This document shows, in pieces, positions 37,543 to 48,142 of a DNA stretch of 64,000 nt (positions are counted from its first letter, which is position 1; each line of letters begins with the position of its first letter). The notes below the pieces were generated by a model. The model was given only the letters and a program-made list of their open reading frames with translations, did not search any database and was not told the origin of the DNA. The DNA is taken from the NCBI GenBank assembly GCA_965197475.1, contig CBDANF010000003.1, positions 2,432,001 through 2,496,000 on the forward strand, given 5' to 3'. The stretch is from Candidatus Poribacteria bacterium (GTDB lineage: Bacteria > Poribacteria > WGA-4E > WGA-3G). Both the position numbers and the translations under genes were made by a program.

Positions 37543-38220
37543 TCAGTCTATATTGTTCGTAAAATACTTACACACACTTTGTAAATTGCAAGCTTGACAT
37601 TCCGGCGTTTTCTGGCATACTCTTGCCCCATGCCGAACAATCAGGGCGTGATATTCGTTGAACAGATCCACATCGTGGGGAAGGTTGTCCATAAAGAACG
37701 CACGAAGTCTCGCGTAGTGATAGTTCCCTTCAACCCATCCCAATCGGCTCAGAAGTCTGTAGGTATAAGTATCAACGACGAAACTCGGTTTTTCTGCAGC
37801 GTAGAGAATAATAGAATCGGCTGTTTCGGGACCGACACCGTAAATAGAGAGCAGCTCTTCACGTAATTCGGGGACACCTTGCATAAACATTGTCTGCATC
37901 GGGCGTTCAACGATATGTTCAACAAAGGCACGCACCTTCTTTGCTTTCATCCGAAAATATCCAGAAGGTCTGAGAAGTTTTTCCAACTCATCTTGGCTAA
38001 TCGCGTGTATCTGTTTTGGCGTAAATGCGTCTGCAGTTTTGAGATTGTCTATTGCTTTAACGACATTCCGCCACGCAGTGGCTTGTGTCAAGATAGCACC
38101 AAGTGCTACTTCAAAGGGTGTATCTGCTGGCCACCATCTAAGGGTGCCGTGTTGTGTTCGGAGTTGATGATATAGGTCAAGCAGTTTTTTATTCAGATTT
38201 TTTTCAAAAATAATTCGCAT
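37543..38220 (-). CDS. Endonuclease III-like HhH-GPD DNA glycosylase with 4Fe-4S motif
   Basis: WWPADTPFE, GVGPETADSI, VVDTY and C-x6-C-x2-C-x5-C. Confidence 0.9.
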   Translation of the reverse strand: MRIIFEKNLNKKLLDLYHQLRTQHGTLRWWPADTPFEVALGAILTQATAWRNVVKAIDNLKTADAFTPKQIHAISQDELEKLLRPSGYFRMKAKKVRAFVEHIVERPMQTMFMQGVPELREELLSIYGVGPETADSIILYAAEKPSFVVDTYTYRLLSRLGWVEGNYHYARLRAFFMDNLPHDVDLFNEYHALIVRHGARVCQKTPECQACNLQSVCKYFTNNID

Positions 38221-38267
38221 ATCGGTATAATTTATATAATTCCCAATTTAGACAGCGAGGAAATGAA

Positions 38268-39155
38268 ATGAACATCAGTTTTAGTACCAGTGTCGGCGGT
38301 GGTGCGTGGAGTTTTGCTGAATGCGCCGCATGGGCAAAAACCTACGATTTTGACGCAATCCGCCCAAACGCTAACGGCCTTTTTGAACCGAACCAGATTA
38401 TACAATCAGGTGGCGAAGATGTCAAGGAAATTTTGTCTTCCACAGACATCTATGTTGCAGCTTTAACAGCACATTCTAACCTTTTGGACGATGATTCAGA
38501 AATACGAGAAAATGCTCGCGATATGTTGATGCAAGCAATTGAAGCAGCGCATATACTTCAAATTCCAATAGTAGTTACTTACGCTGGAAGTCCTGTTAGT
38601 TGGCATTTTTACGGGCAGTTTTCCTCTGAACCCGGTAACCCTGGGGATCGCTCCGTAGAACTCGTCCAACGATTCAAACTGATGTGGACACCCATTGTCC
38701 AATTTGCTGAAGATAGAGGTGTAAGACTTGCTTTAGATTGTGCAGTTCGCATGGGCAATATTGCTTGTAATCCAGAAATGTGGGAAGGTATCCTTGATGC
38801 GATGCCTTCGGATGCTCTGGGATTATCTTGCGACCCATCACACTGGCTATGGATGGGGATTTTGCCTGCCGAAGACGCTATTCGTATGTTTAGCGGGAAA
38901 TGGTATTATGCCGATGTTAAGGATTGCGAAATTAGTCCACGCATGCTTTTCAGACAAGGTATTATCGGTAACTGGTGGTGGCAGTATCGGGTGCCGGGAC
39001 GAGGACAATTAAATTGGGGCACGATAATCGGTGCGTTGCAGGAATCTGGATACGATTATGTTCTTTGCGTCGAAAACGAAGATCGTGGTGCACCGGGGCT
39101 AGAAGGTTTCGCTATCGGTTGTAAACATCTCCGCCAATTCCTGGCAAATTCTTGA
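38268..39155 (+). CDS. Sugar phosphate isomerase/epimerase (xylose isomerase-like TIM barrel)
   Basis: DPSH, KD, PGRGQLNW and VENED motifs. Confidence 0.8.
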   Translation: MNISFSTSVGGGAWSFAECAAWAKTYDFDAIRPNANGLFEPNQIIQSGGEDVKEILSSTDIYVAALTAHSNLLDDDSEIRENARDMLMQAIEAAHILQIPIVVTYAGSPVSWHFYGQFSSEPGNPGDRSVELVQRFKLMWTPIVQFAEDRGVRLALDCAVRMGNIACNPEMWEGILDAMPSDALGLSCDPSHWLWMGILPAEDAIRMFSGKWYYADVKDCEISPRMLFRQGIIGNWWWQYRVPGRGQLNWGTIIGALQESGYDYVLCVENEDRGAPGLEGFAIGCKHLRQFLANS

Positions 39156-39255
39156 TTGTTGCATACAAAACATGTGCCAAGTGTTAGAAATTCAATGTCA
39201 CATAACTCAATACGTTCCTTGAAATTGATTTCGGTTTGTGGTAGTTTATTGGTAA

Positions 39256-40317
39256 ATGATGAAACAATTGAATCCTAAATCACACAGAATCGTTATTCTT
39301 GCTGAAGGATCGTTCGGTGTACTTGAATCGAAAACCGCCACGGTTTTGGTGCGTTACCTTCCTGACAACGTTGTCGCTGTCATTGATAGTACGAAAGCGG
39401 GAAAATATGTCAATGAAGTCATCGAAATTGGCGAAGGAATTCCGATCATCAGCAATCTGGTAGAGGCGATGCGGTTTCAACCGACGATGTTGGCTATCGG
39501 TATTGCACCACCGGGGGGCGAGTTGCCGGGTGCTTGGCTCGGGATTCTCCATGAAGCAATCGGTAGTGGATTACACATCATGAGTGGTCTTCACCATTTT
39601 TTGAGTGATGACGTTGAGCTTGCAGCATTAGCAGGGACAAACAATGTTGTGCTGTGGGATGCACGAAAGCCATCAGATAATCTGCCTGTGGCAACATGTA
39701 AAGCTGCAGATGTAGATGCAACGGTTATTCTTACCGTCGGGTCGGATTGCCGCGTCGGGAAAATGCTATCCGGTATTGAGCTTACTTATGCAGCGCGGGA
39801 AAGGGGATTCAACGCTGAGTTTTGTCCGACTGGACAGAACGGCATTATGGTATGGGGGTGGGGCATCGCGATTGACGCTGTCGTCTCAGACTTCACCGCT
39901 GGTGCGGTGGAGCAGATTGTGCTTGAAGGTGCAAAAAACCACGACCTTTTAATCGTTGAGGGACAAGGATCATTGGTTCATCCAGGATATTCCGGCGTAA
40001 CATTAAGCCTACTCCATGGAAGTCTACCGGATGCGATGATATTTTGTCATCAACCCTCGCGGGAAAAGGTTGCGAGGTATACAGTGCCGCTACCCTCTTT
40101 AACCGAGATGATAGCACAGTATGAGATACTAACTGCACCTATAAAACCGGCTAAGGTCGTTGGATTGGCATTGAATTGTTTTGATTTATCTGAAAAGGAA
40201 GCGCATGCGGCAATTGCTGCTGCAGAGGCAGAAACAGGGTTGCCTGCTACAGACATAGTGCGGTTTGGCACAGAAATATTGGTTGATGCTATTCAGAAGG
40301 TGCATGAAGGTAACTAA
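39256..40317 (+). CDS. DUF1611 family protein (DgcN-like P-loop)
   Basis: KTA..LVRY, VGSDCRVGKM, TGQ.GI and EGQGSLVHP motifs. Confidence 0.88.
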   Translation: MMKQLNPKSHRIVILAEGSFGVLESKTATVLVRYLPDNVVAVIDSTKAGKYVNEVIEIGEGIPIISNLVEAMRFQPTMLAIGIAPPGGELPGAWLGILHEAIGSGLHIMSGLHHFLSDDVELAALAGTNNVVLWDARKPSDNLPVATCKAADVDATVILTVGSDCRVGKMLSGIELTYAARERGFNAEFCPTGQNGIMVWGWGIAIDAVVSDFTAGAVEQIVLEGAKNHDLLIVEGQGSLVHPGYSGVTLSLLHGSLPDAMIFCHQPSREKVARYTVPLPSLTEMIAQYEILTAPIKPAKVVGLALNCFDLSEKEAHAAIAAAEAETGLPATDIVRFGTEILVDAIQKVHEGN

Positions 40318-40360
40318 CGATGCTGTTTAACAAAGATGATTAGGGAGGAGACAATCTTAA

Positions 40361-40618
40361 ATGGTTACTCATAAATGGTTGGTAGAAACCGAAAATCCTC
40401 ATACTGTTCAAGTTAATCATTGGGACACGTCGTGGTTTTCTGGCAAGGTTCATATTTATGTTGACGACGAATTAATCTACGAAAGACATCTCAAATTATT
40501 TGACTACTCGCCGTTAGAGCATCGTTTCAAACTTGACGGGTTACCCTATATCATCCGAATTTTATACCGGACATGGCATTATGAATATGAACTGTGGGTT
40601 GATGGAAAACTGCAGTAG
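40361..40618 (+). CDS. Small beta-rich protein, FAIM1-like
   Basis: GGAGG SD; H.V...H..SGK..IYVD...F...YEYELWVDGK pattern. Confidence 0.55.
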   Translation: MVTHKWLVETENPHTVQVNHWDTSWFSGKVHIYVDDELIYERHLKLFDYSPLEHRFKLDGLPYIIRILYRTWHYEYELWVDGKLQ

Positions 40619-40817
40619 TTTAACCAATTGGGTAGAGCATCATAGATACTTCGTTGAGATGGTGGTTTCAAGCGCATACAACAGAAAAGCGCGTTTACAA
40701 ACGCGTCGACTGGAATAGGTTTTTGATTAAGTTCTGACATATTGTCGTAGGTCTTAGACTATATAATAATTCGCAATAAGTAGTTTTGGACTTGCAACAA
40801 GCCATTGAATTTTTCAC

Positions 40818-40847
40818 TTGACTCTCTTTTCTCCCACATGTTATACT
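40818..40847 (+). promoter_or_regulatory. Sigma70-like promoter inside the IS end
   Basis: TTGACT-18 nt-TATACT with TG extension. Confidence 0.6.
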
Positions 40848-40851
40848 ATCC

Positions 40852-40930
40852 TAACGTTGTTGGTAGGGAATCTCATCTGTCTCGCTTGAGGCAGTCCCTA
40901 CCAAACCGAATGAGATCGGGAACAACGTTA
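40852..40930 (+). ncRNA. Candidate structured RNA with bulge-loop kissing interaction
   Basis: Four predicted stems plus complementarity between AUCUCAU and AUGAGAU; begins at the predicted TSS. Confidence 0.5.
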
Positions 40931-40990
40931 AGGTTAAACAACGTGATCCTATAAACAAAACACGTACAACCCTTACCATAAGGGAATATC

Positions 40991-41227
40991 ATGGTACTTT
41001 TAGTGTGGCCACTTCTTGTATTTGCTTACTATAAGCAAAAATACACGTTGAAAAACTGGCTTTTGTTTTTCGCTATCATTGGATCTATAGTCACTGTTCT
41101 CGGTGCTCGAGAATACGCATTAGTAGCATTGGTAGCCCAAATTGTCGGCATACCTATTATTTTTCTGTCGGCAAGATTCACCGCTTGGTGTATCAAACGG
41201 TATGTAAACCGAAAGAAAACAGACTAA
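40991..41227 (+). CDS. Small multi-pass membrane protein (IS cargo)
   Basis: 78 aa, 2-3 hydrophobic segments, basic C-terminus; SD lies in the CCCTTA/TAAGGG hairpin. Confidence 0.7.
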   Translation: MVLLVWPLLVFAYYKQKYTLKNWLLFFAIIGSIVTVLGAREYALVALVAQIVGIPIIFLSARFTAWCIKRYVNRKKTD

Positions 41228-41275
41228 CCCAACAACGAGGTGCCCCTGTCCCCTCTAACTCACAAAGGAACTATC

Positions 41276-41611
41276 ATGTTAATCATATTTCCAAAACCTG
41301 AACAAATCACTGGATTTTGTCCATTAGCCGTAAATCTTAATATTTATGATGAAATTGTGATCATCAAGAACAACGAATCAAACTTGTTCAATCTGACTCT
41401 GTTGAAACATGTAGACGCTCATGGATCGAACCAATCAACTTTTCTCTACAATTTGGGCATCTTCCAATCCGAGTCAGATTGCTATACATTGTTCCAAAAT
41501 ATTCTCGAAGCTTTGAATTCGGATCAAAAGACATTCGAGCTTCCGCCATCTGTGCTGCAAGCACCGCCTGAACCCGCGGATCATGCAAAGAAACGCCCTG
41601 GGTACCTTTAG
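41276..41611 (+). CDS. Hypothetical protein (IS cargo)
   Basis: AAGGA SD before ATG 41276; homologous fragment at 42744-42974. Confidence 0.7.
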   Translation: MLIIFPKPEQITGFCPLAVNLNIYDEIVIIKNNESNLFNLTLLKHVDAHGSNQSTFLYNLGIFQSESDCYTLFQNILEALNSDQKTFELPPSVLQAPPEPADHAKKRPGYL

Positions 41612-41617
41612 TTTCAC

Positions 41618-42502
41618 TCATCTCATACTCTCATTAACAAACTTATCAAAGATGCTGTCAATGCTCCTATAGTTATACTTGTAGCACGCCTCTGCGACAT
41701 ACAGGGGCGTATATTCAGTCCAATAGTGGTGATGTGAACCATACCAAGCGCGTTTGAGAAGCGACCAAAACCCCTCAATCGTGTTTGTGTGGACATCACC
41801 GTCAACAAATTGCTCTTGATGATTGATGATATGATGCTTCATATCTCTACCGAGTGCGAGATAAGCATTATATTCATCGGTCATCAACTCCGAATCCTGA
41901 ACTTTCACGGCTCTTCGGATAAAGTCTAAAATAGTCCGTCCTGTCAAATCCCTTGCAAGTTGTGCTACAACTTTCCCACCGCGTTGGACAGCCCCGATGA
42001 TTGCGTCTTTATCAGTGCCACGACCACGCTTGGCAGGCTCCGCATCTGCTTTCTTGTTCGGCTTGCGAGGTTTACCCCCGATGTAAGTTTCATCAGCCTC
42101 TATGATGCCTTGTAATAGCACGTTGCTACCTTTCTTTGCCATTTCAGCACGGATACGAGTCATTATAAACCATGCAGTTTTCTGATTCAAGTCTAAATCA
42201 CGACTCAACTGGTAACTGGATAACGACTTCTTCGCATTCACAATCAACGAGATCGCCAAAAACCACTTCTGAAGTGCTATCTTTGTCCCGTGAAACACCG
42301 TGCCACACGTCACCTTGAAAGTAGCAGTGCAATCATGGCATTGCCAGCGTCCGATGCGTCCCAATTCCGTCTCTGTCCGTTCCGCAACGTTTAGACTATC
42401 ACAATGCGGACATCTTGGTTCACCACGCCACCGAATATATTCCAAATGCTCAATACATGCTTCTTGGTCAGGAAAACGCTCCATTACCTTCAATAAATCC
42501 AT
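41618..42502 (-). CDS. IS1595-family transposase
   Basis: CPHC/CHDC zinc ribbon, EADETYIGG, TDEY and HTNTIEGFWS motifs. Confidence 0.95.
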   Translation of the reverse strand: MDLLKVMERFPDQEACIEHLEYIRWRGEPRCPHCDSLNVAERTETELGRIGRWQCHDCTATFKVTCGTVFHGTKIALQKWFLAISLIVNAKKSLSSYQLSRDLDLNQKTAWFIMTRIRAEMAKKGSNVLLQGIIEADETYIGGKPRKPNKKADAEPAKRGRGTDKDAIIGAVQRGGKVVAQLARDLTGRTILDFIRRAVKVQDSELMTDEYNAYLALGRDMKHHIINHQEQFVDGDVHTNTIEGFWSLLKRAWYGSHHHYWTEYTPLYVAEACYKYNYRSIDSIFDKFVNESMR

Positions 42503-42743
42503 CAGATACTCCTTGAAATAGGAGTTGCTTTTTCTGACGGATTTCTGATATAATACCAGATAAGATTAGAACCGTCAAAAAGCAACTCGCTTTTTGTGTT
42601 CATTTAGGGGGCTACCAACCCCCTACTTTCTTATCTATATTGTATCATAGTTGCACAATTAAAACAAGTGGAAATGTAGTCTACATCTGTGTTTGTAGCG
42701 ATTTTTACATGTTTGTTGCAAGTCCAAAACTACTTATTGCGTT

Positions 42744-42974
42744 TCACTTTTAGCCTTACATACAGAGAGTTTTGTAGAACTCGCCCTTGTAAAACTTGAT
42801 ACAAATTTTCGCGTAGTGATTCAGAAACCTTTTGACACGGACAATGAGAGGTTGGAATTTGCTCTTGACATGATCGATGCTCTGAAAGATGGAAAGCCAA
42901 CTTTTGAACTTCCACAGCATTTTCCCTCAAATCCTGATGACAAAAAGAACAAGATTGATAAGGCATACCTTTAG
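42744..42974 (+). pseudogene. 5'-truncated homolog of the 41276..41611 cargo gene
   Basis: Open frame ...IDALKDGKPTFELP...KAYL* compared with ...ILEALNSDQKTFELP...PGYL*. Confidence 0.7.
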
Positions 42975-42983
42975 TTGTGTCCA

Positions 42984-43865
42984 TCACCGCATACTTTCAT
43001 TAACAAACTTATCAAAGATACTGTCAATGCTCCTATAGTTGTACTTATAGCACGCCTCTGCTACATACAGGGGCGTATATTCAGTCCAGTAGTGGTGATG
43101 ACTTCCATACCAAGCTCGTTTGAGTAGACTCCAAAACCCCTCAATTGTGTTTGTGTGGACATCACCCTCAACAAATTGCGTTTGATGATCTATGATATGG
43201 TGTTTCATCTCCTTGCCGATAGCGAGATACGCCTTATACTCATCGGTCATCAACTCCGAATCCTCAACTTTGACGACTCTTCGGATAAAGTCTAAAATAG
43301 TCCGTCCTGTCAAATCTTTAGCGAGTTGTGCTACAACTTTCCCGCCCCGCTGTACTGCCCCGATAATAGCGTCTTTCTCTGTTCCACGTCCACGCTTGGC
43401 AGGCACGTGGTCTTCCTTCTTATTAGGCTTACGAGGTTTACCCCCGATGTAAGTTTCATCTGCCTCTATGATGCCTTGTAGTAGCACGTTACCTTTCTTT
43501 GCCATTTCAGCACGGATACGAGTCATGATATACCATGCTGTCTTTTGATTCAAGTCTAAATCGCGCGCAAGTTGATGACTTGACAAACTTTTCTTCGCAT
43601 TCGTTATCAACGAAATAGCCAAAAACCACTTCTGTAACGCTATCTTTGTCCCGTGAAACACCGACCTGCACGTCACCTTGAAACTCACTTGGCACTCGTG
43701 GCAGTTCCAACGACCGATACGACCGATTTCTGTTTCTGTCCGTTCTCCTATATGATCGCTTTCACAATGCGGACACACAGGTTTACCTCGCCACCGAATC
43801 TTCTCTAAATGCGAAATACAACTCTCTTGATCGGGAAAACGCTCCATCACCTTCAACAAATCCAT
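42984..43865 (-). CDS. IS1595-family transposase
   Basis: Same motifs as the first copy; start MDLLKVM chosen by comparison with it. Confidence 0.95.
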   Translation of the reverse strand: MDLLKVMERFPDQESCISHLEKIRWRGKPVCPHCESDHIGERTETEIGRIGRWNCHECQVSFKVTCRSVFHGTKIALQKWFLAISLITNAKKSLSSHQLARDLDLNQKTAWYIMTRIRAEMAKKGNVLLQGIIEADETYIGGKPRKPNKKEDHVPAKRGRGTEKDAIIGAVQRGGKVVAQLAKDLTGRTILDFIRRVVKVEDSELMTDEYKAYLAIGKEMKHHIIDHQTQFVEGDVHTNTIEGFWSLLKRAWYGSHHHYWTEYTPLYVAEACYKYNYRSIDSIFDKFVNESMR

Positions 43866-44084
43866 CAGATAACTCCTTGAAATAGGAGTTGCTTTTTCTG
43901 ACGGATTTCTGATATAATACCAGATAAGATTAGAACCGTCAAAAAGCAACTCGCTTTTTGTGTTCATTTAGGGGGCTACCAACCCCCTATTTTCTTATCT
44001 ATATTATACCATATAAACCCAGTGGACACAAGGCTTTATAGCGATTTTTTAAAATTTTTCTCAAGTTCAAAACTACTCATTGCG

Positions 44085-44680
44085 TTTCTTTTTACCACTA
44101 TAATAACCCTTTTGAGTTTGTGGGTCTTTGGGGCGTCGTATCGGGCGTTCGGTGCTATCATGAAAAAAATGTTCTCCTTCTTGATTTTGAGTTGATACTT
44201 TTGATGGAGCACATATAGGTGCGGGGTCTGTTTCCCGAGATGGCAACTCTCCAAGTTCTGCTAATGCTTTGTTCAATATCGATAAAAGCAAGTGAATCCA
44301 TCTATTAGCAAGAGGTTGAGACATGCCAAAGAGCGCACCGAATAGCACTTGTTTCGGTGCTTCACGAAGGTAAATCAGTATAAATAGCAACATATCTTCA
44401 GGTGTATCAAAACGACTATTTTTATACGGTTTATATCTCCGTTTTTTGCGCGGTTTTCCTGCAAGGGTATGTGTTTGAACATACTCTAAAAAACATTTAG
44501 TAAAATAAGGTGATAGTTCAGTCCAATCTTCTAAGGTATATCCGGTGAGGGACAGGAGCGTATCAGGTTTGTCCCTTAGTTCTTGAAAACTTATCATGAG
44601 TTAGCCTCCTATTGTCCGATTGTAATAAGTATAATAGAGACTAACCAAACGGACAACTAATTAGTTATAATGTCTATTAT
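44085..44680 (-). mobile_element. IS5-family (ISL2-like) transposase 5' fragment truncated by IS1595
   Basis: SLTG...LLFILIYLR....G.LFGMSQP.ANRWI, D.TERPIRRP.D..QK.YYSGKKK; the ORF ends within the IS1595 TIR. Confidence 0.8.
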
Positions 44681-44773
44681 ACACCTCACCTATAGGAGCG
44701 ATCTCCTGATCGCGACCAAACGCAGTAATAGTCGGGAACAGGAGTTCCCTCCTACCGTTCAATAATATTGAAT

Positions 44774-44932
44774 TATAGTAAAATCTGTAATTATCTGGAC
44801 ACTGCTGTAGCGTCCACTTTCAGTTTGCGCAAGGACGACACAAACTAAAAGTTTGTGCTACAAAATATGCGGTAGGAACTGTTTCCCAACTGGACCGATA
44901 ACAATGTCCAAGTAATTCTAAAATCTACTATA
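44774..44932. mobile_element. IS630-type MITE identical to 34067-34225
   Basis: Base-for-base identical on manual comparison. Confidence 0.85.
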
Positions 44933-45344
44933 ATATAAGATTTAATTGATACACATTTCGCCCCGCGGGCTAATAGGGGTTGTTCACCAGCGTTTCTATA
45001 AACATTTCGCCCCGTTGGGTCTGCCTTTGCTGCACCTATAATAGTTTTTCTGTGGGTTACAACTTTGCACAAAACTCGTAGAAAAATAGAAAGGACTTGA
45101 GAACACAACATGAAACAGACAGAAATTGTCCAAACTTTAGTAACTATAAGGGAATTGATCGATTTTCAATAGGTAGCAAATTGAGTTATAATTCTAAAGT
45201 GCTCTGCCTTGCTACAGTAGATTCGTCAATTCACGCTGAAATCTATCCTTACGGATATCCGTTCCCTCCTATTATCCTGTTGTTAACCTTCTGTATAGTT
45301 ATAGTATAATATTGAAAACTGCTAATTGTTCTGAGGTGGACACT

Positions 45345-46516
45345 ATGCAAAAATTATTTCTCAAAATTATTAAACCGCAGGCCTTTATTGGGTGCTTTAT
45401 ATTACTCATATTAACCGGTATTTCACTTGTTTCTGCTGACGAGGAACACGGTGAATCAACCCGCCCCGACAGCTACGGACCAATCGGTGTAATGGGGGAG
45501 CAGGTGAGTTGATGCTTTCATATTGTTTTATGGGTATGGGTATGAATGGACTCCGAGATGGGGCTGATCCTATTTCAACCGAAGAAGCCCTCAAAACTTA
45601 TGCTATGGTTCCGACCGTAATGCAGATGCAAATGCGCATGTTCGGTGCGATGTTTGCGCCTCACGATATTGTCACGTTCATGGCGATGACAAGTTATCGG
45701 AGTAATTTCATGGAAATGAAAGGCGCACATGCTCACGCTACTGGAGGACATGACCATGCTGTAGGAAATCACGAGATCGAGAGCGGCGGACTTGGCGACC
45801 TCAGGCTTTCTGCACTGATTCCTTTACTCAATAGATCAAATTTAGTCCTACTTCTTAAAGCGGGTGTCTCTATCCCGGTAGGTTCTATTCCTGTAGAAGG
45901 CACACACGGTGGAACGGAGGAGGTAGTTCTTCCGTATCCGATGCAATTGGGTTCCGGTTCTTTTGAACTGATGCCTGGTGCAACCGCTGCGACAACACAG
46001 GGCAATTGGTCGTTTGGTTTGCAGGCGAATGCTGCAATTCCTCTCAATGAAAACAATCGAGGTTATAAATTGGGAACTTCTATTGGCACTACGGTTTGGG
46101 GCACACGCAAGCTCAATGACTGGCTCAGTGTTTCTATCCGTGGATCGTTTAAAAATTGGGGCAATATTTCTGGTCAAGATGCGGCATTCGCCCCAAAAGA
46201 CGAGATGGAATCGACAGAAGATCATCATGATACTGAGGAGCATGGAACCCAGGATGCTCATCATGCAGCACCGATGGAGACAACCGATGTTTATTATATC
46301 GCGCCAACGATGGACCCAAATCTTCGCGGCGGCACGCGCGGCAGTTTGTCAGCAGGTGTGAACTTCATCGTTCCTGACAGAGTCGGTGGTGTTTTGGCGG
46401 GGCAGCGGCTTGCTGTTGAGTTACAGATGCCGGTCTATGAGAATCTTGACGGACCACAGATGGGATTGGATTGGACTATTGTTGCTGGTTGGCAATACGC
46501 TTTTGCGTTATGGTAG
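45345..46516 (+). pseudogene. His-rich outer-membrane transporter-like protein split by a frameshift near 45500
   Basis: Signal peptide and RPD..PIGVMGE, then AGELMLSY in another frame; GLGD, LPYPMQLGSG and terminal GWQYAF. Confidence 0.7.
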
Positions 46517-46772
46517 AGCGGTTGTTGACTTTCGGCAGCTGGCTATTGGCTGTTGGTTATAACGTGCTGCTTACCAATTTTTTGGATGATCGGACTACTG
46601 CTTGGGTCTTAGGTTATTTCCAAGAGGATGCCGCAGCGTTCGGTGCTTAAATCTGTGCAGGTTAGACCGGGCGGTGGTTCTCGAATCGGTTGCGGTGTGA
46701 TTGGATTGATAGAGTAAAAGTTAACTCTTTTATAGAAGTGAACTCCTTAGTGGCGATTTCTAACTGCAGCTA

Positions 46773-47270
46773 TTACTGTGCCTCGCCTGCCTCCCGTAAC
46801 ACAAAATCAATCAGCGAGTCGCTCATACGCATTCCGTTATTTCGCAATGCCATTAAAAGAGGCTTAATTGCATCAATCAAGCCTTCTTCCTTTGCCTCCA
46901 GCAAAATACCCGCCGTTCCCTTCACAATGAGTCCGACTCTTTTAGCCTCCTGCCGTGCCTTCTTCTCATCTATAATCACAAAAGAAGCCTTGTGCTCATT
47001 AGCAAGAGCCAAGACCTCGGCTTCACCGTCATCAAGCCCTTCATAAACCGCTGCGTTTTGCGGATCCGTTAAATCAACAGTTTTAATCCACGGAGCATCA
47101 TTGAGTGCTTGTTGACGAACTTCTTTTTTCGTTCGGAGAAATTCCCTTTCAACTTCTCGTGGTATCCATACTTCTGTATAGAGATCCCGAAACAGAGAAA
47201 GAAGGTTTAGTCCCCAGAGCGAAACGAGGGGACTATTATTACTGATGATTGGCTTTACGGGCATTCTCAA
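46773..47270 (-). CDS. DUF3368 PIN-like putative toxin
   Basis: ISN.SPL, IP.EV..E, LDDGEAE, IIDE and GT.GIL..AK motifs. Confidence 0.85.
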   Translation of the reverse strand: MRMPVKPIISNNSPLVSLWGLNLLSLFRDLYTEVWIPREVEREFLRTKKEVRQQALNDAPWIKTVDLTDPQNAAVYEGLDDGEAEVLALANEHKASFVIIDEKKARQEAKRVGLIVKGTAGILLEAKEEGLIDAIKPLLMALRNNGMRMSDSLIDFVLREAGEAQ

Positions 47271-47898
47271 GCTCCTCTTTCAGATCTTCAGCTGTACCAA
47301 AAAGAGAAAGCTCATAATCCCCCATCAGATACCAAAATTTTTCGCGCGACACACCGGCAAGTCGTGCAGCGAGTCCACTGCTCAGTTCTTCATTTTCATA
47401 ATATTTCATCGCCAACGCTATACGCGCATCTTTATCAATTTCAAAAGACTCTGGATTCGAAGCCAGCAGATGTAAGATGTCTTCCGGCAACTTAACCCCT
47501 ATTTCCTTCTCAAATGCGGCGATACTTCCGTGTGTGTTATGAAATGCATCGGCAATATCCACACCTTGGAGTATAGCAACAGTGAGGTCTCTTTTCGCTT
47601 CTTCCCACTGTTTTGCGCGCAAGTATGCCTCACCCCGTGTATAATAGGATTCGGCAAACTTTGGCTTCAGGACAAGCATTTGGGTGTAGTCTGCAATAGC
47701 CTTGTTCAACTCGCCTTTGTCACGATACACATTACCGCGATAGTGGTGTGCATCGGCATAATCGGGGTTGAGTTTTATGGCTTTGGTATAATCAGCGATA
47801 GCAAGTTCCAACTCACCTTTTTTGCTGTGAGTTAACCCGCGATTGAAATACGTCTTGGCGAGTTTTTGATTGTGTTCTCTTGTCATTTTCTTCTCCAC
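47239..47898 (-). CDS. TPR protein fused to UPF0175 antitoxin domain
   Basis: AIADYTKAIKLNPDYADA TPRs; C-terminal LA.KYY....LSSGLAARLAGVSR. Confidence 0.85.
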   Translation of the reverse strand: MEKKMTREHNQKLAKTYFNRGLTHSKKGELELAIADYTKAIKLNPDYADAHHYRGNVYRDKGELNKAIADYTQMLVLKPKFAESYYTRGEAYLRAKQWEEAKRDLTVAILQGVDIADAFHNTHGSIAAFEKEIGVKLPEDILHLLASNPESFEIDKDARIALAMKYYENEELSSGLAARLAGVSREKFWYLMGDYELSLFGTAEDLKEELENARKANHQ

Positions 47899-47920
47899 GA
47901 TGTGGATGACTTAAGGGTAA

Positions 47921-48142
47921 TCATAGCATGTCCGGTGAACAGATTTCAACCGATTTATTGGTATGAAGGGCGAGATACTCGCTTACTTCAAAATTCATTC
48001 GATCAATCTCAGCAAAAAAGCCGCCCGCGGATAACTCATAATTCTTAGGATTGGTTTCGACTTGCGTAAGTTTTTCGACTTGTTTTTCAAAGCGTTTAAT
48101 GCGATCCAGCGTTGCCTCAAACTCTTGATTGTTCCGAATCAT
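47921..48142 (-). CDS. Small helical hypothetical protein (MI.N.QE..TL.RI family)
   Basis: GAGGTG SD before ATG 48142; resembles small proteins recalled from toxin-antitoxin neighbourhoods. Confidence 0.6.
   Translation of the reverse strand: MIRNNQEFEATLDRIKRFEKQVEKLTQVETNPKNYELSAGGFFAEIDRMNFEVSEYLALHTNKSVEICSPDML

Follow-up and report, generated by a model that had tools for sequence, protein, structure and literature searches.

The window analysed here is a stretch of 64,000 nucleotides (nt) from a Candidatus Poribacteria bacterium (contig CBDANF010000003.1, positions 2,432,001 to 2,496,000), which contains at 40772-42741 an insertion sequence (IS) of the IS1595 family. Between its terminal inverted repeats (TIRs), the element encodes a transposase on the minus strand and, convergent on it from the plus strand, two small open reading frames (ORFs) of 78 and 111 amino acids (aa), which are preceded by a promoter and a structured leader RNA (Table 1). 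A first-pass annotation of the window had described the perfect 29-bp TIRs, the promoter, the RNA with its stems, bulge and hairpins, and both ORFs, and each of these parts was recovered in our analysis. It had not reported that the RNA is a multi-copy family, that the 3′ strand of its first stem is repeated further downstream, or that the element had inserted into another IS1595 element (type B), whose right half now forms its right flank. The RNA family is the main subject of this study and, on balance, we favour its interpretation as a bistable 5′ leader that controls translation of genes on mobile elements.

Table 1. Features of the IS1595-family element and its right flank (window coordinates).
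Feature	Position	Strand	Details
IS1595-family element	40772-42741		1970 bp; ends are perfect inverted repeats
Left TIR	40772-40800	+	29 nt, 100% complementary to 42713-42741
Predicted sigma-70-type promoter	40818-40847	+	TTGACT-18-TATACT, TG-extended; 10/12 consensus matches
Leader RNA core	40852-40930	+	Three-way junction
Stem P1	40852-40861 with 40921-40930	+	
Stem P2	40862-40869 with 40895-40902	+	GGUAGGGA/UCCCUACC
Bulge	40870-40876	+	7 nt
Hairpin P2a	40877-40894	+	
Hairpin P3	40906-40919	+	
Pseudoknot	40871-40876 with 40910-40915	+	Bulge UCUCAU with loop AUGAGA
Second copy of P1 3′ strand	40937-40944	+	AACAACGT; can pair with 40854-40861 (P1′)
Stretch resembling first tnpB codons	40945-40969	+	GATCCTATAAACA... 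(tnpB start: CGAACCTATAAATA...); compared by eye with TnpB-linked copies
Small hairpin with Shine-Dalgarno of 78-aa ORF	40970-40984	+	CCCTTA-CCA-TAAGGG; formed in the minimum free energy fold of 40848-41010
78-aa small membrane protein gene (cargo)	40991-41227	+	2-3 hydrophobic segments, basic tail
111-aa accessory protein	41276-41611	+	Upstream GTG at 41240 would make 123 aa
IS1595-family DDE transposase	41618-42502	-	294 aa, N-terminal zinc ribbon; Pfam, NCBIfam
Predicted transposase promoter	42550-42578	-	TTGACG-17-TATTAT; consensus scan only
Right TIR	42713-42741	-	Complementary partner of 40772-40800
Right half of type-B IS1595 element	42742-44084		Interrupted by the window element; 80-93% identical blocks; includes a TIR
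Truncated accessory ORF of type-B half	42816-42974		
Transposase of type-B half	42984-43967	-	

The core of the leader RNA is predicted to fold into a compact three-way junction. The minimum free energy (MFE) of 40852-40930 is −39.0 kcal/mol, as compared with −20.6 ± 3.0 kcal/mol for 200 shuffled sequences (z = −6.1; none of the 200 was as low), and the MFE fold reproduced the outer stem (P1), the second stem (P2), the 7-nt bulge and both hairpins (P2a and P3) proposed in the first-pass annotation. Homologues were collected with a covariance model (R1) built from two sequences, from which the pseudoknot between the bulge and the P3 loop was left out. Within the Poribacteria families f1 to f4, of which f1 is that of the window genome, R1 found the RNA in 87 of 112 genomes of f1, with up to 23 copies per genome, and in 8 of 29 genomes of f3, where it is confined to one genus; none of the 11 genomes of f2 or the 7 genomes of f4 had a match. 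The window genome itself carries 15 R1 sites. On a phage-like contig of a different family, the entire fold lies 5′ of a GIY-YIG gene, with a different P1 and a compensatory change in the bulge-loop pair.

Covariation, promoters and the downstream repeat were analysed in the best-scoring 100 of roughly 340 matches, which comprise 97 distinct copies with several per genome. Across the distinct copies, 97.5% of alignment cells form standard pairs and 33 of 35 pairs have changed on both sides. None of 500 shuffles reached these values, and sliding the partners by 1-3 columns reduced pairing to 32-46%; a smaller set of 32 sequences gave a similar picture. All six pseudoknot pairs show double changes and are 97.9% paired. 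The alignment was fitted to the nested helices only and the pseudoknot nevertheless covaries, which therefore provides unbiased support for the "kissing" contact; this covariation is the check on homologues that the first-pass annotation had named. The RNA family and its structure are almost certainly real.

The P2 sequence is unusually conserved in the main group of copies (GGUAGRGA/UCYCUACC, where R and Y are purine and pyrimidine) and differs in divergent members. A second covariance model (R2), built from the 100 R1 matches, found the same 15 sites of the window genome with default settings and, with filters off, also the leaders of the related IS1595 elements of types B and D (26 and 25 bits). 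In these two leaders, P2 has another sequence, whereas P1, the repeat behind it and the complementarity of bulge and loop are retained. The single tnpB gene of the genome (G000:C3:2862074-2862230, minus strand) is preceded by a leader that by eye has the architecture of the family, i.e. P1, P2 with the 7-nt bulge, an inner hairpin, a loop complementary to the bulge and, next to P1, a second copy of its 3′ strand. Its sequence differs, with yet another P2, and neither R1 nor R2 detected it. A DNA pattern for the RNA core retrieved 52 metagenome loci, of which just 4 were genuine by the model, and 6 viral loci, of which all 5 that were searched with the model matched. A looser pattern (GGTAGGGA..TCCCTAC) mostly retrieved an unrelated 29-nt palindromic repeat. 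This perfect palindrome, GGTAGGGAAC(AACGATCGTT or GCAGATCTGC)GTTCCCTAC, occurs in up to about 36 copies per genome in f2 and f3 (e.g. L039 at G021:C2:404252-404280, and L058 in G046); its outer arms are identical to P2 of the leader RNA, and it looks like a repetitive extragenic palindrome. The palindrome was ruled out as a form of the leader RNA, given that none of the 11 palindrome-rich f2 genomes has a match to the RNA model.

In agreement with the first-pass annotation, the RNA has no counterpart in Rfam 15: no match at E ≤ 1 was found on window positions 38000-48000 or on ten homologous loci (34,329 bases), with any IS605-orfB models of that release included, and none at the gathering threshold on the whole window. 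These scans also bear on the idea of a self-cleaving or otherwise processed RNA, which would yield a stable small RNA and an mRNA starting near the Shine-Dalgarno-like spacer behind P1, with the repeat re-docking the product. A compact junction with a pseudoknot and an association with mobile elements are both common for small ribozymes. However, no Rfam 15 ribozyme matched at E ≤ 1 and the junction lacks a conserved core of the hammerhead kind, and we regard processing of this sort as highly improbable.

The leader occupies a fixed place directly behind a promoter. A sigma-70-type match with at least 9 of 12 consensus positions precedes 90 of the 97 distinct copies, the mean for shuffled upstream sequences being 8.4 of 97, and a match with at least 10 of 12 precedes 78 (shuffled mean, 1.1). 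In 83 of 97 copies, 14-16 nt separate the end of the −10 box from P2, a spacing that puts the predicted transcription start on the first bases of P1. On the other side of the RNA, a same-strand ORF of at least 40 aa begins within 300 nt downstream in 97 of the 100 matches. Thirty-eight of the downstream genes belong to one cluster with the Pfam domains OrfB_IS605 and Cas12f1-like TNB, i.e. TnpB. Seven encode GIY-YIG proteins and lie on phage-like contigs. The remaining genes are single cases, including D12, N6_N4 and N6 DNA methylases, an AbiJ-TIR protein, a DUF4268 protein and small secreted or membrane proteins, and several copies of the leader lie within IS1595 ends. Given this arrangement, the RNA very probably acts in cis as a leader.

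The arrangement is clearest in the tnpB elements. Two copies of one such element become identical about 95 nt 5′ of the RNA, where there is a hairpin of the kind found at IS605 left ends, which gives the order left-end hairpin, promoter, leader and tnpB. At four TnpB loci of other phyla (Geoalkalibacter, Chroococcidiopsis, Rhodothermus and Trichormus plasmids), the −10 box lies directly before the ATG in all four, and no match to the RNA model was found there at E ≤ 1 with filters off, in keeping with a leader that is specific to this lineage. In f2, which has no copy of the RNA, no match to the leader-linked TnpB was found at E ≤ 1e-10. At two D12 methylase loci (L119 and L138), the tnpB start in the repeat persists as a 9-codon upstream ORF, whose stop overlaps the methylase start (ATGA), suggesting translational coupling to the leader; at a third (L144), that start codon is lost (ACG). 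IS200/IS605-type elements transpose as single strands, and many copies of the leader are located some 95 nt inward from the left end of an IS605-like tnpB element, which raises the question whether the fold works as single-stranded DNA in transposition, not as RNA. We give this almost no credence, since the position and orientation of the motif after a promoter are fixed, a separate left-end hairpin lies 5′ of the promoter, and the motif is also present in IS1595 elements and on phage-like contigs, where that mechanism is not used.

In four sponge metatranscriptome runs from one study, 36-85% of the sampled words of the window element were present. RNA-library contigs of low depth extended over 40772-41058 and most of the element; DNA may be present in these libraries, assembled contigs do not reveal strand or transcript ends, and they are not used as support here. 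One contig of run X1 matches 40841-41049 with 29 unrelated bases before 40841, suggesting that the leader and the 78-aa gene may also exist behind other upstream sequence in the sampled community.

Shortly after P1, the 3′ strand of this stem is repeated. In the window, its two copies (40921-40928 and 40937-40944) are separated by the spacer TAAGGTTA, and the second copy can pair with the 5′ strand of P1 at 8 of 8 positions, forming an alternative helix (P1′). Within 5-11 nt after P1, a repeat that pairs with the P1 5′ 8-mer at no fewer than 7 of 8 positions was found in 90 of 97 copies, as compared with 32% in a mismatched-locus control, and full pairing (8/8) in 63 of 97, as compared with 6.6%. 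Of 40 different P1 sequences, 34 are accompanied by the repeat, which therefore changes along with P1. The two helices are predicted to be similar in energy: the difference between folds with forced P1 and forced P1′ averaged −0.06 ± 4.8 kcal/mol over the 86 copies (of 97) for which a score was obtained, the pseudoknot not being counted, and the unconstrained MFE fold of the 86 contained P1 in 50, P1′ in 28 and neither in 8. P1 and P1′ are mutually exclusive helices of the kind that make up the expression platform of a riboswitch.

The repeat also coincides with the beginning of tnpB. In 27 of 28 distinct full-length TnpB-linked copies, nucleotides 5-7 of the repeat are the ATG of tnpB, and the spacer before it is usually Shine-Dalgarno-like (e.g. 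GGAG or AAGGA). Formation of P1 would therefore free the initiation region, and formation of P1′ would bury the start codon.

On these observations, we lean towards a bistable 5′ leader on mobile genes of sponge-associated Poribacteria as the best explanation of a covarying fold that is found in many genomes, is located behind promoters and is followed by a P1′ repeat, which in TnpB-linked copies contains the start codon. The transcript would begin with the first stem and fold into a three-way junction locked by the pseudoknot between the bulge and the hairpin loop. The 5′ strand of P1 would then exchange between two partners, the P1 3′ strand and the identical repeat downstream, leaving the tnpB start codon free in the first case and burying it in the second. 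The junction and the pseudoknot would favour the ON form, and the leader would thus set the translation level of the downstream mobile gene. The balance might be shifted by a ligand or a protein, by the order of folding during transcription, or by Mg2+ or temperature via the pseudoknot. For the more specific proposition that alternation between P1 and P1′ controls translation, we consider the case evenly balanced. The first-pass annotation had named a new riboswitch or ribozyme among its options, and a new riboswitch-like regulator is possible.

Several points weigh against this explanation. The transcript, its ends and both conformers are predictions from sequence and folding, and the energy comparison leaves out not only the pseudoknot but also other tertiary contacts. 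The counts come from a best-scoring sample with several copies per genome and are therefore not independent. In 49 of 69 non-TnpB copies, the repeat contains no start codon, and in the window it reads ACG, while the 78-aa ORF starts about 45 nt past the repeat, behind its own hairpin. As the repeat covaries in these non-TnpB settings as well, its role would not be start-codon masking alone, and such masking may not operate in the window element at all; the repeat could also be kept for processing, for pairing in trans or by descent. Finally, the conserved unpaired positions are few (an A preceding the pseudoknot, an A in the junction and an R following P3), which would speak against a classical metabolite pocket and gives no hint of a ligand pocket.

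Some of the same observations would also fit a leader that does not switch at all. A compact fold with the 5′ nucleotides held in P1 might shield the mRNAs from decay by RNase E or RNase J and act as a 5′-end stabiliser or insulator, which might also standardise expression wherever the element lands. The predicted start at the first P1 bases in most copies, the unrelated genes downstream, the scarcity of conserved unpaired positions and the distance of the window ORF from the repeat are all in line with such a role. However, it accounts neither for the covariation between P1 and the downstream repeat of its 3′ strand (34 of 40 P1 types) nor for the presence of the tnpB start codon inside that repeat in 27 of 28 copies, and we consider it unlikely, though worth keeping in mind. 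The other alternative is a true riboswitch or protein-responsive switch, in which a small molecule, an ion or a protein (e.g. TnpB or a host factor) binds the fold of junction and pseudoknot and shifts the balance between P1 and P1′. The architecture resembles that of translational ON-switches in having a junction, a long-range loop contact and a strand-swap platform, and the unusual conservation of P2 in the main group could be read in the same way. Against this, the strands that join the helices measure just 0, about 3 and 1 nt and contain few conserved unpaired bases, P2 differs in divergent members, the downstream genes share no metabolic theme, and no ligand can be named; a switch of this type therefore appears rather improbable to us.

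In the window element, the bistable leader that we favour would be found in a derived setting. The stretch at 40945-40969, directly behind the repeat, is similar to the first tnpB codons and may be what remains of a tnpB 5′ end whose start codon was lost (ACG). The promoter, fold, spacer, repeat and tnpB start region may thus have been copied together from a tnpB element into IS1595. The module, now without a tnpB start, would head an operon of the 78-aa cargo gene and the 111-aa accessory gene. Here the RNA may be chiefly a promoter-proximal leader or a stabiliser, with at most an indirect effect of switching on the 78-aa ORF.

The 78-aa protein is represented by 25 cluster representatives with 56-100% identity and 12 invariant columns. 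Neither it nor the 111-aa protein belongs to a Pfam, PADLOC, NCBIfam or PHROGs family, with no PADLOC match at E ≤ 0.1. When the 78-aa alignment was used in a search of genome contigs, one locus was found among 73 pattern matches, and in metagenomes none among 105. A relative of the 78-aa gene in another genome is preceded by a TIR remnant, a promoter and a truncated leader that consists only of the P2 stem with its inner hairpin, in which every position has changed and pairing is retained. The Shine-Dalgarno hairpin, which the first-pass annotation had pointed out and which is present in the window, is not kept in this relative, the one compared. In four more distant relatives, the RNA model found no leader at E ≤ 0.01, and a fifth was marginal (E = 0.073).

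According to the first-pass annotation, the RNA, the 78-aa ORF and the 111-aa ORF form an RNA-controlled module spread by an IS, possibly of the type I toxin-antitoxin or abortive-infection kind. In such a module, the RNA would control a toxic 78-aa membrane peptide with the 111-aa protein as a partner, and the hydrophobic character of the 78-aa protein, its basic tail and the Shine-Dalgarno sequence within a small hairpin would fit. However, the leader is generic: the same RNA precedes TnpB, GIY-YIG, methylase and AbiJ-TIR genes and other IS1595 cargo, and the 78-aa gene occurs elsewhere with a truncated leader or with none detected at the threshold given above. No defence-family match was obtained, and a consensus scan, which is a weak test for antisense RNA, predicted no promoter-like site on the minus strand of 40850-41230, i.e. 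over the 78-aa ORF. In addition, the 111-aa ORF belongs to the backbone of the IS (see below) and six identical copies of the element are tolerated in the genome. What stands of that proposal is an IS1595 element that carries a structured RNA outside Rfam; its grouping with the two ORFs as one dedicated module is scarcely credible.

The 111-aa ORF had been taken for a second cargo gene. Homologues occupy the equivalent position, convergent on the transposase, in the type B and type D IS1595 elements of the same genome, and some loci in other genomes are 1.6-kb elements with neither the leader RNA nor the membrane gene. Its presence in elements that lack both indicates that it is part of the IS1595 backbone rather than cargo, and we conclude that the 111-aa ORF is an accessory gene of an IS1595 subgroup. 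The family has 56 representatives among 1.84 billion proteins and was found in 12 of 176 genomes of the phylum; at loci in other genomes, an IS1595 transposase lies within 1.5 kb in 8 of 13. AlphaFold2 predicted a five-stranded sheet with a C-terminal helix (predicted local distance difference test score, 77.5). A Foldseek search of this model against the PDB gave nothing significant, the best E-value being 0.3, and a weak resemblance in fold to the Pur-alpha, Whirly and levivirus-coat proteins (a beta-sheet with a helix) serves as a lead only. The subgroup is thus defined by a conserved accessory protein of 100 aa that is encoded next to the transposase and has no significant fold match in the PDB. 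The membrane gene is the variable part, as types B, C and D hold other small membrane proteins at its place. A second conserved element of about 60 nt (GCTTGAG...GTGCATAACG...ATGCAC...CTCAAGC) was noticed in types B and D and in two other genomes (L184:200-270, L185:225-295, L067:1640-1710 and L080:1640-1705), where it immediately precedes a small ORF (43-56 aa) whose product is very basic. It has one compensatory change in its inner stem and may be another structured leader.

The transposase matched the Pfam domains DDE_Tnp_IS1595 (PF12762; 1.6e-36) and Zn_ribbon_IS1595 (PF12760; 1.4e-09), and the NCBIfam model transpos_IS1595 (NF033547) with 188 bits against a cut-off of 75. The genome contains six copies of the 1970-bp element, which are 100% identical and share the same ends. 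Target-site duplications in the IS1595 family are 8 bp long. Those of the present element are 8 bp and AT-rich, and intact at one of the six copies, that at C3:590404, which has AAACTAAA on either side. The zinc-ribbon transposase, the short TIRs and the 8-bp target duplication, the features of the family that were examined, are all present, and 40772-42741 is an active IS1595-family insertion sequence. The repeat of the P1 3′ strand was also considered as a target-site duplication and rejected, since its left partner is a reverse complement and not a direct copy.

The copy in the window is flanked by TAATAATT on the left and TTTCACTT on the right, and the same words stand in swapped places around the copy at C3:2586070-2588039, which has the opposite orientation. 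The window copy thus lacks a target duplication of its own because of an inversion between these two copies. The reciprocal swap of flanks between the window copy and G000:C3:2586070-2588039 implies that the inversion arose by recombination and spans about 113 kb; among three other copies of the IS, the flank words are exchanged three ways. The right flank TTTCACTT continues the accessory ORF of the type-B element, and the insertion point lies inside that ORF. The other half of the interrupted type-B element adjoins the copy at C3:2586070-2588039.

Two terminator-like hairpins (42576-42625 in plus-strand coordinates) lie between the right TIR and the predicted transposase promoter. Both are 93% conserved in the neighbouring type-B element and could stop read-through from outside into the transposase gene. 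Directly upstream of the IS, an 85-aa ORF (40361-40618, plus strand) showed similarity to the Pfam domain FAIM1 (Fas apoptotic inhibitory molecule; 7.4e-07, 29.5 bits against a cut-off of 22), which is unusual in bacteria.

The leader RNA shares traits with several known systems. Translational ON riboswitches of the purine "add" type likewise lie in a 5′ untranslated region, hold two helices side by side through tertiary pairing and have a P1 that competes with a helix over the translation start. The leader differs from them in having no Rfam match, a near-empty junction without an evident conserved pocket and no known ligand; in it, the strand that competes in P1 is an exact copy of the P1 3′ strand, and the regulated genes are those of mobile elements. 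The leaders of IS10, IS50 and IS200, known for fold-back inhibition and for a stem-loop that sequesters the ribosome-binding site, also form a helix in cis that is able to bury the initiation region of a transposon gene. However, theirs are simple hairpins, while the present leader is a covarying junction with a pseudoknot, about 95 nt long and with two iso-energetic states, that serves tnpB and cargo genes and not the DDE transposase of the window IS. TnpB omega RNA (reRNA) and the Rfam motifs IS605-orfB-I and -II are likewise structured RNAs tied to tnpB in IS605-like elements. Omega RNA lies at the 3′ or right end and is followed by a guide, whereas the leader is found between promoter and tnpB start, some 95 nt from the left end, and has no guide segment. 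In description, exoribonuclease-resistant RNAs and 5′ stabiliser stems are also similar, with a three-way junction and a pseudoknot at the extreme 5′ end, but they lack a repeat that forms P1′. Finally, the "transporter IS" concept of ISfinder and TnCentral describes IS1595 elements with passenger genes, which share the zinc-ribbon transposase, short TIRs, 8-bp duplications and extra ORFs within the TIRs. In the present element, the extra ORFs are a conserved accessory gene and variable small membrane proteins, driven by a structured leader.

A supplement published by Weinberg and colleagues in 2017 is said to list a motif named "Poribacteria-1", which may be the leader RNA; if Rfam 15 contains that motif, it gave no match here. 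If the two are the same, the fold is already known, and the link to TnpB, the placement behind promoters and the P1′ repeat might still be new. Text searches of the literature, judged by title or abstract, found no paper on a Poribacteria RNA motif or on translational control of TnpB by a pseudoknot in the 5′ untranslated region. The main text of Weinberg et al. 2017 (PMC5737381) contains no occurrence of Poribacteria, IS605 or orfB. Subject to the caveat of the "Poribacteria-1" motif, we consider this a first sighting of a widespread leader RNA of mobile genes, whose commonest partner in the sample is TnpB.

Cas12 descends from TnpB, which is also the most abundant RNA-guided nuclease of bacteria, and, to our knowledge, little is known about how TnpB expression is controlled. 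A leader between the promoter and the start of tnpB in dozens of genomes offers a testable handle on this control. A regulatory unit of promoter, fold and initiation region may itself spread among unrelated mobile settings, i.e. IS605-like elements, IS1595 elements, phage-like contigs and defence genes, and a fold of about 95 nt with about 100 natural variants is suited to structure determination and to studies of strand exchange. Tentatively, and with more doubt than confidence, we also put forward a bolder reading of the data, in which the RNA represents a new class of responsive switch that gates TnpB translation by exchange of the P1 strand. Possible triggers are Mg2+, temperature, a protein or a ligand. 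Together with the promoter and the start region of tnpB, the RNA would have been copied as a portable expression cassette to other mobile genes, namely defence genes, orphan methylases, phage homing endonucleases and IS1595 cargo. If true, the leader would be the first 5′ regulator dedicated to TnpB and, at the same time, an independent mobile regulatory module.

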